From Planctomycetota bacterium (GTDB lineage Bacteria; Planctomycetota; UBA11346): a DNA stretch of 64,000 nucleotides. Shown piece after piece: positions 46,178-62,253 of this stretch. How positions within the stretch are numbered: position 1 is the stretch's first letter; each line of letters starts with the position of its first letter. The stretch is taken from NCBI GenBank assembly GCA_038231435.1, contig JBBRLJ010000014.1, positions 36,146 through 100,145 on the forward strand, read 5' to 3'. The notes beneath the pieces were generated by a model that had not been told where the DNA came from, searched no databases, and saw nothing but the letters and a program-made list of their open reading frames with translations. Both the position numbers and the translations under genes were made by a program.

Positions 46178-46609
46178 TCAAAGCCTCTCCGGTAGTCCCG
46201 CCCCCGTCCTCCCCGCCACCACCACCAACCCCCTCTCCATCAACATCTGCAGATACATCGTCATCAGCACTCTCGCCTCATGGAACGACAGCCGGTGCTC
46301 CTGAGCCAGCCAATCGACCAGCGACTCCACCGTCGCCACGCCATCCACCTTCCGCCAGACCTCGAGTCCGAGTCCGTCCAGGCGGTAGGACTTGGTGCGC
46401 CGCAGCTTCAGCAGCGAGGCCAGCGGCCTGAGGACCGGGCCGTAGCTCAGCGGCACGGTGAGTGTCGCGGCATCCTGCAGTTCGACTGCCTCGACGCGCT
46501 GGTTGCGCACCGGGATGGCTGCGAGGCGCTCGGCGTATGAGAGATCAGCGGCCTTCGGCGCGCCACGCTTCCTCGCCAGGATCGGGGGCGAGGGGTCAGC
46601 CGACGACAT
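46178..46609 (-). CDS. PqqD family / RiPP recognition element (RRE)-like protein
   Basis: YRLDGLGLEVWRKVDGVATVESLVDWL...YLQMLMERGLV matches the PqqD winged-helix pattern; start re-placed at ATG 46609. Confidence 0.8.
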   Translation of the reverse strand: MSSADPSPPILARKRGAPKAADLSYAERLAAIPVRNQRVEAVELQDAATLTVPLSYGPVLRPLASLLKLRRTKSYRLDGLGLEVWRKVDGVATVESLVDWLAQEHRLSFHEARVLMTMYLQMLMERGLVVVAGRTGAGLPERL

Positions 46610-47504
46610 CGTCGGGCTCCAGGCGTGGATGCTTGGGTGGTCCCACCTGCTCGATCGCGTAGATACGGCCCTCTGTCGGATCGTGCCACATCCAGGCGTC
46701 GCCGGGCCACCAGGCGCCGGTGAGCATTTCCATCCGGCGTTCGCCACGGCGTTCGAAAGCCGTACGCACGCCGCGCAGGCCACGGAACTCGACCGGTTGC
46801 GACGACATCACCCGCGAGCGCGCGCGGGAGAGCAGGCGACGATGCAGGCCCGCCAGGTCGAGCCCAGCGAGCACCGCGCGATCGAGGCCGATGCGGCGGG
46901 CAGTGAGATGCAGATCCTTAGCGGTCTCGAAGGTGATCGCCACGTTCGCCGGTTCGGGCGAGATCGCCTCGAATGCGAAGGGCTCTGGCAGCTGGAGCGA
47001 TACTCCGAACAGCTCGTGGCGCCTCGGCCAGGCGTGATTGGGGCGGAACGATTCCAGGAGCGGCAACAGGGTCGAGGCGGCGAACGCCTCGTCATGCTCG
47101 GGAAAGATCCACTGCAGCAGCGTGCGCGTAGAGTGCTGGTAGAGCGAGGCGTAGGCGGGCAGCCCGGGCCGGTGCCAGGCGAAGAGGAACTGCCCGACGA
47201 CGCTGGTGCTCAACGCGGCGAAGACCGAGGCGTCCGCGGGCGCGGCCTTCGCCAGGAAGCGGCGATGCACCTCGTCGAGGATGCGTGGCTGGTCCGGGGT
47301 CTGGGGCACGGTCCGCCACACCAGCTGGCCGCGCGGACGCACGCGCTCGTAGAACTGGAACTGGCCCTCATCGTTCGCGAAGTGATGGCCGGTGATCTCC
47401 CACCAGAGGGGCAGCGTGAACGAGAATCCCCGCCACGACAGCCTGCGGATGCGCTCGATGTACGGCGGCACGAGCGTCGCGCCTGCCGGCGGATCAGCCG
47501 CCAC
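46596..47504 (-). CDS. Hypothetical soluble protein with an apparent internal duplication
   Basis: Overlaps both neighbours in operon fashion; halves begin WRGFSFTLPLWWEI and LFGVSLQLPEPFAF; start uncertain. Confidence 0.7.
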   Translation of the reverse strand: MAADPPAGATLVPPYIERIRRLSWRGFSFTLPLWWEITGHHFANDEGQFQFYERVRPRGQLVWRTVPQTPDQPRILDEVHRRFLAKAAPADASVFAALSTSVVGQFLFAWHRPGLPAYASLYQHSTRTLLQWIFPEHDEAFAASTLLPLLESFRPNHAWPRRHELFGVSLQLPEPFAFEAISPEPANVAITFETAKDLHLTARRIGLDRAVLAGLDLAGLHRRLLSRARSRVMSSQPVEFRGLRGVRTAFERRGERRMEMLTGAWWPGDAWMWHDPTEGRIYAIEQVGPPKHPRLEPDDVVG

Positions 47505-59887: not shown

Positions 59888-60138
59888 GGGCCGCCGCCGG
59901 GCCGCCTCGGTACACCGATCTCCGTCCCGACCCCATCGGCGCTCGTGGTCGCACCCTGATCATCGATCCGTGACACCGCGACCTCCGCAAGGGCTTGGGG
60001 CTGCTGACGCTGAGTTGAACGACGGGCCGTCGAAGGCGTGACATGGTGGGTGGTTGCGCCAGGGCACAACAGGTTTGGACGGCCGTGGAGCGACGCTTGG
60101 ACACCGCGTCCATCTCACCCGTTGCGCGCGGTCATCCA

Positions 60139-62253
60139 TCAACCACCGGTGAAGCCGGTGTAGCCGGGGGCGCCGGTTATCAGCCAATGGAGGAATGCCC
60201 CCACCGTGAGCAGGGCGCCGCACATGATCTCTCCCAGGATCAGGCCGAGGAACAGCGGCTTACAGGTCCGGTAGCCGCTGGCGCCCCCGAAGCGCACGAT
60301 CGACTCCTTCAGGCACCACCCGAGCAGGAAGGAAAACCACAGGAACTTGCACGGCCAGGTATCCCAGATCAGGAAGATGATCGGGTGCAGCCAGAAGCCG
60401 GGGTAGCGGAAGCGCACCAGCACCAGGGCCAGCACCCCGGCCATGCCGAATCCCATCCACGACAGCTGCTTCCCGTGACCGACGTTCTCGCCGAGCAGGC
60501 CGAGCTTCGCCAAGCCGTGGGCCGCCGACGAGGAATCGAAGCGGCCCGTGTCCGCCAGGGTACCCAATCCGCGCGTCGCCTGGTCGATGGTCGAGGGCAA
60601 TGTCGATTCCAGGACGTGGAAATTGTCGCGCTTGCCCCCGTAGGCGTAGGTGGTGTAGGTCTGGGCCGCGAAACCGAGCACCGCCGCGAGCGCCATAGCG
60701 CCGAGCCCGGCGGCGACCAGGCCGCCGACCCGCGTGCCGGTGTTCTCAGCGACCTTGAGCCCATTGGCGACGAACGGCATCATGCACACACGGGTGTCGA
60801 AGTTGATCACGCTGCCGAGCCAGTAGATCATCACCAGGCACGACGGGCCGAGCGCGGGGAAACCCATGATGTTCGCCAGCACCATGCCCGAGTCGAACTC
60901 GGCCTGCATGAACGGCACGCCGGTCTCGCAGATGATGCGCGTGACGACCAGGAAGAACATCTGTACCGCCAGCACGTACACCACCGCGATCATCCAATCG
61001 AGTCCGAACCCCCACCACAACACCAGGGTCAGGCCCGCGGACGCGGCCAAGAAAACTCGCGCCGCCCATACACCCTGGTTGTCGCCCTCATCGCTCGCGC
61101 GCCGCGCGCGCAAGGCCCGCGCCATCATCGAACGGTAATAGGTTCGTCCGGTATAGACCAGGATGAGCGCGTACGCGACATAGGCTCCGGCCACGATGCT
61201 CTTGCAGTCGACGTTGCTCATCGGCTTGCCGGTAGCCGCGTAGACCTGGACCGAGACCAGCGCGAACCACAGCAGGTTGGTGCCGAAACTGAAACTGATC
61301 TCGGACGGGATGAAATAGGCGATGCCGATGATCATGAACTGCGTCCAGCCACGCAGGTTCAGGTCGACGTTCTTCAGCACCGGGAATAGCTGACTGAAAT
61401 CGTCGCCGACGTAGAACGCCGACGAGATCCACGGGAACTTGCCGTGCGTGAGGATGGCCAGGTAGTTGATCAGGTAGAATATGAACGGCGGCGCCGCGCC
61501 CATCCAGAACAGCCGCGATCGGAACACCTCCGGGATGCGGCCATCCGCCTTCGGGATCATGGCGCTGAACACCGTCGCCAACGGATAGGCCAGCTGCTCG
61601 TGGCGCGACCACTGGCGATGCACGAGCAGTGCCAGCGCGGACATCGACAGCGCAAGGCAGCCGATCAGCGGTCCCCAGTACGCCATGATCGGCAGCCAGG
61701 CGCGCCATGGCGCCTGGGCCACGCTCAGCACGCCGTCGCCGACCGGGATGCCGGTCTCGAAATCACCGTACACCTTCTGGTAGGACGGGTCTGCCTGATC
61801 GTGGGCGAGCGGGAACAGCCGGGATGGCAGATATTCGAGGGTCTGGCGCGCGATCCAATCGGCATGGGCGGGCTCGGCGAGCCACGGCCGGATCAGGTAG
61901 ACATGGAAGGTGCGGTAGAAGCCGTAGCCCGGGAGCCAGGCCGCGCACAGCATCATCACCAGCACCACGGTCAACTCGCCCGGTTCCAACCGCAGCCGCG
62001 ACCACAGCCGACCGGCGAGCGGATTCCAGACCAGAGCGAGCACGATGATGGCCGCCATCGGGAAGATCGGCAGATGATTGCCGACCATTGGTGGCGCCTG
62101 CACCGTGTTGTTGGTGAAGTCCGCGAGCAGCGAGATGGTGGCCACGCCCAGCGCGCCTAGAGCCACCGATCGCCAGGTCACCGAACGGGCGCGCGCGGAC
62201 GCGGCCGGTGGCGGCTGGTCCGGGATGCCGTCGGGGATCTGCGTGGTCGCCAT
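60139..62253 (-). CDS. Second DUF6785/DUF6784-like paralog
   Basis: Colinear with 57635-59845: GNHLPI, LVHRQWSRHEQLAYP, RIICETG, WLHP, IVRFGG..Y..CKPLFLGLILGE. Confidence 0.8.
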   Translation of the reverse strand: MATTQIPDGIPDQPPPAASARARSVTWRSVALGALGVATISLLADFTNNTVQAPPMVGNHLPIFPMAAIIVLALVWNPLAGRLWSRLRLEPGELTVVLVMMLCAAWLPGYGFYRTFHVYLIRPWLAEPAHADWIARQTLEYLPSRLFPLAHDQADPSYQKVYGDFETGIPVGDGVLSVAQAPWRAWLPIMAYWGPLIGCLALSMSALALLVHRQWSRHEQLAYPLATVFSAMIPKADGRIPEVFRSRLFWMGAAPPFIFYLINYLAILTHGKFPWISSAFYVGDDFSQLFPVLKNVDLNLRGWTQFMIIGIAYFIPSEISFSFGTNLLWFALVSVQVYAATGKPMSNVDCKSIVAGAYVAYALILVYTGRTYYRSMMARALRARRASDEGDNQGVWAARVFLAASAGLTLVLWWGFGLDWMIAVVYVLAVQMFFLVVTRIICETGVPFMQAEFDSGMVLANIMGFPALGPSCLVMIYWLGSVINFDTRVCMMPFVANGLKVAENTGTRVGGLVAAGLGAMALAAVLGFAAQTYTTYAYGGKRDNFHVLESTLPSTIDQATRGLGTLADTGRFDSSSAAHGLAKLGLLGENVGHGKQLSWMGFGMAGVLALVLVRFRYPGFWLHPIIFLIWDTWPCKFLWFSFLLGWCLKESIVRFGGASGYRTCKPLFLGLILGEIMCGALLTVGAFLHWLITGAPGYTGFTGG

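Follow-up and report, generated by a model that had tools for sequence, protein, structure and literature searches.

A conserved nine-gene cluster in a Planctomycetota genome encodes predicted MacB/FtsX-class ABC components and OPT-fold membrane proteins

The window, a 64,000-nucleotide stretch of DNA from a Planctomycetota bacterium, contains nine tightly packed genes at positions 46178–62253, all transcribed from the minus strand and listed here in their order of transcription, followed by a terminator-like hairpin.

60139–62253, minus strand: D1, OPT-superfamily membrane protein (DUF6785 + DUF6784), 704 aa; ATG at 62253
57635–59845, minus strand: D2, second DUF6785 + DUF6784 protein, 736 aa (Pfam)
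56065–57630, minus strand: X, FtsX/MacB-class permease, 521 aa (Pfam FtsX)
55289–56068, minus strand: A1, ABC ATPase, 259 aa, LolD/MacB/DevA/FtsE-like (ABC_tran)
50317–55296, minus strand: BIG, 1659-aa FtsX fusion (Pfam FtsX, profile and fold)
48336–50324, minus strand: M, polytopic membrane protein of predicted OPT fold, 662 aa; ATG at 50324 (fold)
47494–48330, minus strand: A2, second ABC ATPase, 278 aa (ABC_tran)
46596–47471, minus strand: U, cytoplasmic protein of about 291 aa with two related halves; GTG start, from the DNA
46178–46609, minus strand: P, PqqD-like (RRE-type) protein, 143 aa (Pfam PqqD)
46034–46051, minus strand: weak terminator-like hairpin ~125 bp 3′ of P, a possible operon end (consensus scan only)

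D1 and D2 are separated by a 293 bp gap, and every junction thereafter is an overlap or a gap of no more than 22 bp. D2 and X lie 4 bp apart, X and A1 share a 4 bp ATGA overlap in which the A1 ATG overlaps the X stop codon, A1 and BIG overlap by 8 bp, as do the translationally coupled BIG and M, and gaps of 5 bp and 22 bp separate M from A2 and A2 from U. The last junction is a 14 bp overlap in which the P ATG overlaps the U stop codon. These refined coordinates bear out the first-pass annotation, which had described nine co-oriented genes with the last eight overlapping or nearly abutting, and a single operon that encodes a conserved inner-membrane system, as yet uncharacterised, best explains the arrangement. 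The hairpin call is weak, since the consensus scan finds four such sites against 7.4 expected from shuffles. The source genome has one copy each of M, X, P, U and BIG, and the operon is flanked by DnaB, PhyH and AraC, with no CAZyme. Pfam searches of the nine proteins and the flanking ORFs tested reveal no substrate-binding protein, MFP/TolC or RiPP-enzyme domains, as had been noted earlier, and neither a riboswitch nor any other hint of a ligand was detected.

The ABC part is of the MacB/FtsX class (type VII), with two unlike permeases, X and BIG, and two paralogous ATPases with intact motifs, much as had been proposed at first. The topology of X, read from its sequence, has one N-terminal TM segment, an alanine-rich extracytoplasmic region of ~330 aa and a C-terminal three-TM FtsX module (Pfam FtsX, residues 394–514, 5.3e-16). 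Its PDB sequence matches are to 5xu1_M (3.3e-11) and then LolF, MacB, LolC and YtrF, and the nearest solved relatives of the X and BIG FtsX modules are LolF, LolC, MacB and YtrF. All NCBIfam equivalog models score X far under their cut-offs, and the canonical FtsX_Gneg model reaches 33.9 bits against a cut-off of 255. A1 and A2 match ABC_tran (1.8e-33 and 1.3e-33) and are 55% identical (BLASTP, 129/235 identities, E 1e-99). A1 has Walker A, signature, Walker B with its Glu, and H-loop, and the A2 motifs are likewise intact; A1 scores 216.5 bits with the NCBIfam LolD model, under the 307.75 cut-off.

BIG begins with a signal peptide followed by a PA + M28-fold head (~27–646) that is split by a coiled-coil insert of roughly 170 residues (~327–497). 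A beta-rich domain (~660–840) and three helices (862–932) follow, and three extra TM helices (~940–1020) precede the FtsX module, which consists of TM1 (~1065–1085), a periplasmic domain and TM2–4 (1370–1483), all TM boundaries being sequence-derived. The conservation profile marks a conserved cytoplasmic C-domain at ~1490–1640, which has no PDB sequence match. Pfam identifies FtsX at residues 1370–1483 (9.5e-11), with a weak, sub-cut-off MacB_PCD match, and gives no M28 or PA match in the window BIG. The family profile, however, matches the PA-M28 aminopeptidases 2ek8 and 6hc6 in the PDB with an E value of 2e-20, and also nicastrin (2.2e-08), the transferrin receptor and nicalin. A predicted model of BIG (pLDDT 84.6) places the head with the same fold (Foldseek 3.2e-15; VIA Z 22.3 over residues 27–646), and GPI-transamidase entries appear among the fold matches. 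We recovered 57 full-length orthologues of 1463–2072 aa. The M28 first-His column holds His in 6/58 BIG sequences and the Glu-Glu columns hold Glu in 5/58 and 0/58; neither the bridging Asp nor the last His is kept in the family. The periplasmic head is thus predicted, newly here, to be a PA + M28 fold without zinc and catalytic residues in 58/58 sequences. Of the earlier description of BIG as an M28/PA–FtsX fusion, the fold and the FtsX module stand, and the M28 part is corrected to a pseudo-peptidase. Nicastrin, the transferrin receptor and nicalin are M28 folds that have lost the same catalytic residues.

D1 and D2 are 46% identical and match DUF6785 (3.4e-73 and 1.5e-68) and DUF6784 (4.5e-22 and 2.2e-24). 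The window M has no Pfam match, PF03169 OPT included, and 8 of 29 M orthologues do match PF03169 (best 5.3e-09). The DUF6785 family profile aligns with that of the M family over 440 columns (hhalign probability 95.5%, E 1.5e-08), which makes the two homologous. The best Foldseek match of the predicted M model (pLDDT 80.4) is barley YS1 (7wsr_A, E 6.6e-10, TM 0.62/0.67) at 11–12% identity, with the next family at E 4e-03. M is therefore predicted to adopt an OPT fold and to be a homologue of the DUF6785 proteins, an assignment new here that gives substance both to the ‘OPT-like’ label M had received and to the initial count of three OPT-like proteins. In a quick tree, D1 and D2 group with the source genome’s third DUF6785 copy, their closest relative, with SH-aLRT 99. 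D1 and D2 are unremarkable members of a large family of DUF6785 paralogues, and the D proteins form no system-dedicated clade.

The two remaining proteins have no TM segment. U has no Pfam or PDB sequence match and belongs to no known family; an hhalign comparison of its two halves (probability 86%, E 4.7e-06, 41 columns) indicates that they are related, which lends moderate support to the two-repeat structure suggested at first. One weak PsbP-like match among 18 U members (E 0.039) is a lead only. P, which also lacks a signal peptide, matches Pfam PqqD (PF05402) at 7.1e-08 with 33.1 bits (cut-off 23.4), in agreement with its original PqqD/RRE assignment, and scores far under the cut-offs of the NCBIfam lasso and SCM PqqD models. 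Members of the PqqD/RRE family are peptide binders.

Conservation was assessed in 80 related loci, which were chosen by M similarity and include close relatives, so that the locus counts are not independent events. In 66 of the 69 informative loci, defined by at least 1.5 kb of sequence before M, a BIG homologue immediately precedes M, its end no more than 400 bp from the M start; the exceptions are L037, L049 and L082, and the informative loci span PVC phyla, Armatimonadota, Omnitrophota and others. The recurrence of similar sets in PVC bacteria and Armatimonadota had been anticipated in the first reading, which also suggested some archaea, a possibility to which only an Atlas lead naming Thermoproteota points. 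Among 29 well-flanked loci (at least 8 kb on each side of M), X and an ATPase are both present in 20 and two ATPases in 18, a DUF6785 protein is present in 18 and absent from 11, and BIG–M occurs without X or ATPase within 8 kb in nine. P is found in 17 of the 20 loci with X and ATPase (tblastn and HMM combined) and U-like proteins in nine. Three gene orders occur: D-[U-P]-X-A-BIG-M-A-[U-P], A-P-BIG-M-D-X-A-U and D-BIG-M-X-A-P-A. The P alignment (20 rows) covers all gene-order types and keeps the winged-helix region in 20/20; U-like proteins occur in two of the three orders, and the U alignment (18 rows) includes type II ‘c10’ proteins. All four genomes with stand-alone BIG–M (Armatimonadota/Omnitrophota) encode an ATPase and an adjoining short X elsewhere; these ATPases are 53–58% identical to A2, and P lies directly upstream of the unlinked X–ATPase operon in three of the four. 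BIG and M form the invariant core of the system, and the recurrence of the same parts in other genomes supports a conserved set over a chance neighbourhood. Beyond the nine, the families that recur in the 80 loci are an oxidoreductase, DUF4432 and a few more, none of them in more than 11 loci and all lineage-tied. Databases annotate the system’s proteins as hypothetical, and no publication was found that describes this gene combination, which agrees with the first reading that no characterised system combines an FtsX-type ABC system, OPT proteins and an RRE. The gene set is genuine and conserved, and it is uncharacterised.

Clues to a substrate come from DUF6785 paralogues outside the operon. 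The third copy in the source genome lies immediately downstream of a sugar regulator of the GntR/LacI type and near GH42, GH92, F5/8-type-C and rhamnosidase-like genes. Among 16 DUF6785 loci in a Fervidibacter genome, five, with a weak sixth, have a glycoside-hydrolase, CBM or lyase gene no more than three ORFs away; sugar-type regulators are found in four and DUF1559 prepilin-like proteins in six. Such stand-alone paralogues in glycan-utilisation loci hint at glycan-derived cargo.

We tentatively favour, with confidence clearly short of even, a type VII ABC mechanotransducer that works with OPT-fold channels in receptor-assisted uptake. BIG would project its ~900-residue head into the periplasm, and ATP binding and hydrolysis would shift it by mechanotransmission, in the manner of other type VII systems. 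This head may be a receptor that catches an oligomer outside the cytoplasm, with a fragment of a glycan or glycopeptide as the likeliest candidate, and could pass it to M, and also to D1 and D2; these OPT-fold/DUF6785-type proteins would take the cargo across the membrane, with P and U as possible cytoplasmic adaptors or regulators on the X/ATPase side. What the analysis shows is which genes are present, their homologies and folds, the lost peptidase site and the gene linkage kept across phyla; a single complex, inward transport, the class of substrate and the parts played by P and U are inferred. The operon structure, the BIG–M pair, the recurrence of accessory genes, the motor class, the OPT fold, the receptor-like head and the glycan hint speak for this reading. 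Against it, no characterised type VII ABC system is an importer to our knowledge and in the portions of the literature consulted, the known ones expelling, extracting or regulating within the envelope. OPT transporters are driven by protons and do not require an ATPase, so the ABC–OPT pairing could be functional without being mechanical. The nine loci with BIG–M alone, and the D proteins, which form no dedicated clade and are missing at 11/29 loci, also count against uptake, and the glycan cargo is a contextual hint from CAZyme-rich genomes, whereas the operon’s own flanks have no CAZyme.

Cytoplasmic P and U, and the peptide-binding family of P, fit export at least as well as import. Cargo could move outward or out of the membrane, as with MacB, LolCDE, DevCBA and YbbAP, with P and U capturing a cytoplasmic peptide, protein or lipid-linked cargo, the OPT-fold protein providing the inner-membrane path, and the BIG/X motor expelling it or handing it on in the periplasm. 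The outward or intra-envelope action of the characterised type VII systems, so far as the sources consulted cover them, agrees with this, as do P, a true PqqD-family protein kept with X and ATPase even where these are unlinked from BIG–M, and U, with its lack of TM segments, its presence in two gene orders and its PsbP-like lead. However, no conserved ORF for a small precursor is seen in the window cluster or among the recurrent locus families, and neither is a RiPP-modifying enzyme, an MFP or an outer-membrane factor. The characterised OPT members are, as far as we know, all importers, and D paralogues that stand alone occupy loci for glycan catabolism; we consider an exporter or extractor unlikely. 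Co-location of independent transporters (a MacB-like ABC system and OPT-type permeases beside a stray PqqD gene) with no functional link is highly improbable: each superfamily can function alone, D proteins are solitary in many loci and BIG–M can lack nearby X or ATPase, but the same parts recur in three gene orders and several phyla, with adjacent BIG–M, overlapping junctions, X–A operons retained in split-locus genomes with P usually upstream (3/4), and single copies of five of the genes in the source genome.

BIG could instead be a self-contained FtsX–EnvC analogue, in which an ATP-moved coiled coil and dead peptidase domain activate another protein, a periplasmic hydrolase with a role in remodelling the envelope or cell wall, while M and D are ordinary proton-driven importers salvaging the fragments it releases or merely co-regulated. 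A degenerate peptidase-fold domain and long coiled coil on an FtsX module resemble the EnvC/FtsEX architecture (excerpts of PMC12505981 and PMC11491553), and hydrolase partners are a recurring theme among type VII systems, for example YbbAP-TesA (excerpt of PMC12646458). BIG–M lack adjacent ATPases in some phyla, and M need therefore not be mechanically driven. Yet no hydrolase gene recurs across the 80 loci, canonical FtsX models score far under cut-off, and mere co-regulation leaves the near-invariant, translationally coupled BIG–M pair unexplained, so that this alternative too seems doubtful, at about the level of export.

Relative to the type VII ABC systems MacAB-TolC, LolCDE, FtsEX-EnvC and YbbAP-TesA, X and BIG share FtsX-type TM modules with an extracytoplasmic domain, and A1 and A2 resemble LolD/MacB/FtsE. 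Having two unlike permeases is reminiscent of LolC/LolE, the coiled coil and dead-peptidase head of BIG are reminiscent of EnvC, and a hydrolase-fold partner brings YbbAP-TesA to mind. The system differs in having no MFP, TolC, LolA or EnvC-type partner, in NCBIfam equivalog scores far under cut-off, in the three extra TM helices, ~900-aa fused head and conserved cytoplasmic C-domain of BIG, and in an invariably paired OPT-fold protein and a PqqD-like subunit. The predicted fold of M resembles the OPT/YSL family (PF03169, TC 2.A.67; barley YS1, PDB 7wsr), to which the homologous DUF6785/DUF6784 proteins connect, but M shares little identity with YS1, the window M has no PF03169 match, and the D family occurs in glycan rather than peptide or metal-chelate loci; M is encoded with an ABC motor, and we know of no characterised OPT member of which this is true. 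The BIG head, with PA + M28 domains, lost metal ligands and a membrane-borne position, is like the inactive M28 ectodomains of nicastrin, transferrin receptor, nicalin and GPAA1, but is closest to bacterial PA-M28 aminopeptidases (2ek8, YwaD, 2e-20), is split by its coiled coil and is fused to an ABC permease. P, which matches PF05402 above cut-off with a conserved winged-helix region, is accompanied not by a precursor peptide, radical-SAM, lasso-peptide or other RiPP enzyme but by its conserved partners, the FtsX permease and ATPase.

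The operon consists of nine minus-strand genes, whose starts were refined using the DNA together with orthologue alignments. These genes and their neighbours are as follows.

62459-64000, minus: DnaB-like replicative helicase gene, directly upstream of D1 and continuing past the window end
60139-62253, minus: D1, a DUF6785/DUF6784 protein of 704 aa (refined start)
57635-59845, minus: D2, a DUF6785/DUF6784 protein of 736 aa (refined start)
56065-57630, minus: X, an FtsX permease of 521 aa
55289-56068, minus: A1, a LolD/MacB-like ABC ATPase of 259 aa
50317-55296, minus: BIG, an FtsX fusion of 1659 aa with a periplasmic head
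48336-50324, minus: M, a predicted OPT-fold membrane protein of 662 aa
47494-48330, minus: A2, a LolD/MacB-like ABC ATPase of 278 aa
46596-47471, minus: U, a tandem-repeat cytoplasmic protein of about 291 aa (GTG start)
46178-46609, minus: P, a PqqD-like (RRE-type) protein of 143 aa
44937-45797, plus: PhyH-type Fe/2-oxoglutarate dioxygenase gene, converging on the operon end
44011-44934, minus: AraC-type regulator gene, adjoining the PhyH gene

The arrangement described in the first-pass annotation, nine co-oriented genes of which the last eight are tightly packed, is confirmed: D1 and D2 are separated by a 293-bp gap, and the seven remaining neighbours either overlap, by 4, 8, 8 and 14 bp, or stand 4, 5 and 22 bp apart. 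Neither the PhyH nor the AraC gene recurs among the gene families of related loci. A terminator-like hairpin ~125 bp past P is a weak consensus match of a kind rarer here than in shuffled sequence, and scans for the sigma-70 promoter consensus and for Rfam families (45000-64000, E <= 1) returned no sites and no matches, respectively. The sequencing runs found comprise five DNA rows from two studies (sediment and soil metagenomes) and none of RNA.

An FtsX-type transmembrane module, the hallmark of type VII ABC permeases, is present in both X (Pfam FtsX, 5.3e-16) and BIG (9.5e-11, residues 1370-1483; MacB_PCD matches BIG weakly, at 20.3 bits against a cut-off of 27). The module is C-terminal in X and its matches among PDB sequences are LolF, LolC, MacB, YtrF and FtsX, the same set that is found with the BIG module; the positions of the first transmembrane helix and the extracytoplasmic domain in both proteins were read from the sequence. 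X falls far under the cut-offs of all the NCBIfam Lol, MacB and FtsX equivalogs (e.g. 56.4 bits against 362 for lolCE, and 33.9 against 255 for FtsX_Gneg). A1 and A2 both match Pfam ABC_tran, are 55% identical to each other, and have the Walker A, signature, Walker B (with its catalytic Glu) and H-loop motifs expected of type VII ATPases; their best NCBIfam matches are LolD, DevA, MacB and FtsE, all under cut-off (~216 bits against 307.75 for LolD). As judged from these sequences, the motor is of the MacB/FtsX class, with two unlike permeases and two paralogous ATPases whose motifs are intact. Type VII ABC systems act by mechanotransmission, without a substrate path through the permease. The reported lack of a TolC/MFP partner in the cluster is borne out, there being no HlyD/MFP adaptor or OEP domain in the nine proteins, the flanking ORFs tested, or the recurrent families of related loci.

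BIG is dominated by its periplasmic head. The first 935 residues were aligned in 36 rows, and the resulting profile, run against PDB sequences, matches PA-domain M28 aminopeptidases best (2ek8 and Bacillus subtilis YwaD, 6hc6; E 2e-20), with weaker matches to nicastrin, the transferrin receptor and nicalin, and the Fervidibacter BIG orthologue matches PF04389 (1.8e-08). The head model (pLDDT 84.6, pTM 0.87) places an M28 fold at residues 27-646 (Foldseek 3.2e-15; VIA Z 22.3, rmsd 2.8 over 249 residues), which fills the matches in whole-model fold searches. A PA domain is predicted to be inserted early in this fold, followed by an insert at ~327-497 of four helices of 23 to 48 residues each, a beta-rich domain at ~660-840, and three helices (862-932) running toward the membrane. 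Beyond the head, the sequence and its conservation profile reveal three strongly conserved extra transmembrane helices, then the canonical FtsX layout, and then a conserved cytoplasmic C-terminal domain (~1490-1640) that has no match among PDB sequences.

The M28 ligand columns were scored in 58 full-length BIG sequences (the window protein and 57 orthologues). The co-catalytic zinc ligands (His, Asp, Glu, Asp/Glu and His) and the catalytic Glu of M28 enzymes are not retained: His occupies the first zinc-ligand column in just six of the 58, the Glu-Glu columns have Glu in five and none (His is commonest at the first of them, in 41), the bridging Asp column is a one-residue deletion relative to the aminopeptidases, and the last zinc-ligand His is replaced. 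The sole conserved residue of the site is the Asp of the H-x-D motif, kept in 57 of 58 sequences. Because the zinc ligands and the catalytic Glu are lost, BIG should not be classed with the active M28 peptidases; on residue conservation its head is an M28-fold pseudo-enzyme, which may have a non-canonical metal site.

Assignment of M depends on structure prediction and profile comparison, as no Pfam or NCBIfam model matches the window protein and PF03169 (OPT) is matched by eight of 29 orthologues (best 5.3e-09) but not by the window M at E <= 1. These 29 orthologues, 38-59% identical to the window protein, make up the M alignment. The AlphaFold model (mean pLDDT 80.4, pTM 0.83) has two Foldseek matches in the PDB at E <= 0.001, both to barley Yellow Stripe 1 (YS1), with a predicted OPT fold that aligns with 7wsr_A over 682 columns (E 6.6e-10, TM 0.62/0.67); the next family has an E of 4e-03 and a TM-score of ~0.1. 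OPT is also carried by 15% of members among the Atlas neighbours of M, which provides a lead, and a profile-profile comparison of M with a 21-row DUF6785 alignment gives a probability of 95.5% and an E of 1.5e-08 over 440 columns. The YS1 fold match and this profile homology together indicate that M is an OPT-fold relative of the DUF6785 proteins, and the earlier count of three OPT-like proteins is supported, with M included by fold and D1 and D2 by their homology to M. The OPT family is associated with proton-coupled import of oligopeptides or metal chelates. Complex prediction of M with the BIG transmembrane pieces 930-1100 and 1362-1497 scored 0.10 without controls and is evidence neither way.

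The cytoplasmic N-terminus of M (residues 8-27; 50244-50303, minus strand) is strikingly conserved across phyla, with R14, P20 and F23 nearly invariant and G26 and F27 invariant in the 29 sequences; it is a candidate docking peptide, for example for P. Some M orthologues are 800-1083 aa long (P0122, P0125, P0128, P0129, P0140 and others) and match the profile in two stretches with a large insertion near profile position 550. The M profile search also has a second tier of full-length proteins of ~615-660 aa (P0192-P0265) scoring 280-390 bits, versus more than 500 for the orthologues. Among the Atlas neighbours of M is a cluster with the label 'Peptide transporter family protein', and Thermoproteota are its commonest members.

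D1 and D2 match Pfam DUF6785 and DUF6784 and not PF03169, and a D-family profile finds nothing among PDB sequences; D1, D2, M and U all lack a model in NCBIfam. Matches to PF20581, which are not exact copy numbers, amount to 24, 22 and 25 in three Armatimonadota genomes (G001, G002 and G004), 13 in Oligosphaera (G005), three in an Omnitrophota genome (G003), three in the window's own genome (G000) and none in 14 control genomes; DUF6785 is thus a large paralogous family in these Armatimonadota, Oligosphaera and Omnitrophota genomes. DUF1559 (PF07596) matches number 4, 44, 29, 47 and 91 in G000, G001, G002, G003 and G005 and zero in the 14 controls, the window's own genome being poor in DUF1559 although it has the full operon.

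The context of DUF6785 genes was examined at 16 loci (L090-L105; three ORFs on either side) in the Fervidibacter sinensis genome, which is CAZyme-rich and was surveyed without a background control. DUF1559/N-terminal-methylation proteins (prepilin-like; Pfam 'SBP_bac_10') are present in six of the 16 loci, glycoside-hydrolase, CBM or polysaccharide-lyase genes in five (with a weak sixth), GFO/IDH/MocA oxidoreductases in five, and LacI, AraC or SorC-type regulators in four; neither X nor an A2-type ATPase occurs in any of them. Pairs of a DUF6785 and a prepilin-like protein, frequently accompanied by sugar regulators and CAZymes, may represent OPT-type glycan transporters assisted by a binding protein. 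In the window's own genome, the third gene for a DUF6785/DUF6784 protein (G000:C1:16454-18622, minus strand, locus L131) is located immediately downstream of a GntR/LacI-type sugar regulator, among GH42, GH92, F5/8-type-C and rhamnosidase-like genes. In a quick tree of the D family, with SH-aLRT support only, this copy groups with D1 and D2 (SH-aLRT 99). A dedicated ancient clade of cluster-linked D proteins was considered and rejected, as these fall into three separate groups in the quick tree, one of them amid stand-alone Fervidibacter paralogues. Given the tree and the glycan-locus neighbours, the D proteins look like ordinary members of a glycan-linked family rather than a dedicated subunit lineage.

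P is a PqqD/RRE-family protein (PF05402, 33.1 bits against a cut-off of 23.4) that scores far below the cut-offs of the NCBIfam lasso and SCM PqqD equivalogs. Neither a RiPP precursor nor a modifying enzyme was found in the window cluster, its flanks, or the recurrent families of 80 related loci, and a RiPP reading is therefore rejected; the modifying enzymes had likewise been noted as missing from the cluster at first sight. U has no Pfam match, and its family members give only chance-level matches to Pfam; its profile finds nothing among PDB sequences, and Atlas returns unnamed clusters only.

Relatives of the operon were collected by scanning one genome per species with M, which yielded 89 relatives and 80 retained loci, onto which the nine proteins were mapped by tblastn and by HMMs of recurrent families. 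By record title the loci belong to Victivallales/Lentisphaeria, Kiritimatiellia, Verrucomicrobiota, Planctomycetota and Armatimonadota (several of them Fervidibacter), with the remainder from Omnitrophota, Fibrobacterota/Chitinivibrionales, one Anaerolineales MAG and several short contigs with odd labels. A single locus comes from a strain in culture, Oligosphaera ethanolica DSM 24202, where the order is P-X-A-BIG-M-A (L019). Because the loci were chosen by M similarity and include close relatives, their counts describe recurrence and not independent events. Sixty-nine loci have at least 1.5 kb upstream of M, and in 66 of them BIG ends no more than 400 bp before M. The other three differ: in L037 there is no BIG within 4 kb upstream and M is flanked by ATPase genes, in L049 the gap between BIG and M is ~1 kb, and L082 is rearranged (BIG-D-A-P-M-X-A) with BIG and M apart. 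Of the 29 loci in which M is flanked by 8 kb or more on each side, 20 have both X and an ATPase, 18 have two ATPases, and 18 have a DUF6785 protein; P is found in 17 of the 20 loci with X and ATPase (tblastn and HMM combined) and U-like proteins in nine. Three gene orders recur, D-[U-P]-X-A-BIG-M-A-[U-P] as in the window, A-P-BIG-M-D-X-A-U, and D-BIG-M-X-A-P-A, where D is a DUF6785 protein and A an ATPase. The suggestion in the first-pass annotation that similar gene sets occur in PVC bacteria and Armatimonadota is borne out by these loci.

A fourth state, BIG-M alone, accounts for nine of the 29 loci (Armatimonadota, Omnitrophota and some unlabelled MAGs). Four such genomes were searched, three from Armatimonadota and one from Omnitrophota, and each has one ATPase that shares 53-58% identity with A2, a level equal to that of the PVC orthologues. 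It adjoins an X homologue (HMM E 1e-50 to 1e-61) that is short, at 211-280 aa, and has no large periplasmic domain. A P homologue lies directly upstream of X-ATPase in three of the four, and the Omnitrophota genome has X-ATPase without P. The separate operons are as follows.

G001:C7:112070-113901: P-short X-ATPase operon
G002:C1:456475-458278: P-short X-ATPase operon
G004:C5:40697-42561: P-short X-ATPase operon
G003:C9, locus L125:9621-11009: X-ATPase operon (Omnitrophota)

Each of the three Armatimonadota genomes also has a single U homologue amid unrelated genes (SOD, Na/H exchanger, M20 peptidase and FecCD), which give no clue to its role. The window's own genome carries one gene each for BIG, M, X, P and U, and three for DUF6785 proteins. 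The co-occurrence of BIG, M, X, ATPase and P, whether linked or unlinked, is the strongest argument that they belong together. In larger collections, BIG relatives form at least 1067 clusters (90% clustering, E <= 1e-10) among the 7990 candidates that were scored. The names given to them, if any, are 'hypothetical protein', 'ABC transporter permease' and 'FtsX-like permease family protein', and the nearest named ones are from Planctomycetes MAGs. Among 1.84 billion entries, the M profile matches 1180 representatives at E <= 0.001, of which 481 reach E <= 1e-30.

One of the two permeases thus has a large periplasmic pseudo-peptidase head, an OPT-fold protein is translationally coupled to it, and these parts are conserved together with a PqqD-like protein. 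In the preferred, though tentative, reading all of the parts would form one complex in which the BIG head would act as a receptor, in analogy to other M28 ectodomains that have lost their activity, and ATP-driven movement of the head would deliver an oligomer from outside the cytoplasm to the OPT-fold channels, which would import it; the DUF6785 context suggests that the cargo may be glycan-derived. The coiled coil and dead enzyme of the BIG head would also suit a regulator of some hydrolase resembling FtsEX-EnvC, but no hydrolase gene recurs in the loci and this alternative is unlikely, if credible. Export or extraction, with cytoplasmic feeding through P and U, would agree with the outward action of every known type VII system and with the peptide-binding family to which P belongs; it is weakened by the fact that no precursor, MFP or outer-membrane partner was found, and it too appears rather improbable. 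Mere co-location of separate parts is scarcely credible given the pattern of conservation, and other mechanisms take the remaining probability.

Receptor-driven import as preferred here has a bolder extension, which is distinctly unlikely, in which the type VII mechanotransducer (BIG, X and ATPase, tuned by P and U) would serve OPT-fold channels as a common motor and receptor, with M as the fixed partner and the many DUF6785 paralogues dispersed over glycan-utilisation loci, often beside prepilin-like DUF1559 proteins, as interchangeable substrate-specific modules. PVC bacteria and Armatimonadota would then import oligosaccharides or glycopeptides chiefly by this route. Such a system would resemble ECF transporters and TonB systems, in which one energiser is shared among many specific partners, and would be the first ATP-coupled OPT-fold transporter. 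Any operation of the motor with OPT-fold channels would link two classes of transporter in a new way, and might explain complex-substrate uptake by these polysaccharide-degrading phyla, for which we know of no well-understood glycan import systems. To our knowledge, bacterial OPT-superfamily proteins are almost unstudied, and type VII ABC systems are represented by a handful of worked examples in efflux, lipoprotein extraction, cell-wall hydrolase control and lipid hydrolysis.

No paper describing this gene set (FtsX, OPT, PqqD and M28) was found in the open-access literature, in keeping with the initial statement that no characterised system combines FtsX-type ABC, OPT and RRE components; nor was any mention of DUF6785 or DUF6784, or any link between the set and the Akkermansia 'mucinosome'. 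The gene set is confirmed as real, widespread and not characterised, and is not categorically new since its parts belong to known superfamilies; database entries for its proteins read 'hypothetical'. It is best described as a type VII ABC system that has a pseudo-M28 head fused to one permease and is accompanied by an OPT-fold protein and a PqqD-like subunit. The known type VII systems are MacAB-TolC, LolCDE, FtsEX-EnvC and, newly, YbbAP-TesA, none of which is known to involve an OPT-fold partner. The MacAB-TolC pump has an MFP/HlyD adaptor and an outer-membrane factor, whereas the operon and its flanks contain neither, although such partners may be encoded elsewhere; LolCDE and FtsEX differ in that X and the ATPases miss the curated NCBIfam equivalog cut-offs. 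Even on a conservative reading, the type VII ABC family gains a fifth architecture, one with a fused pseudo-peptidase head.
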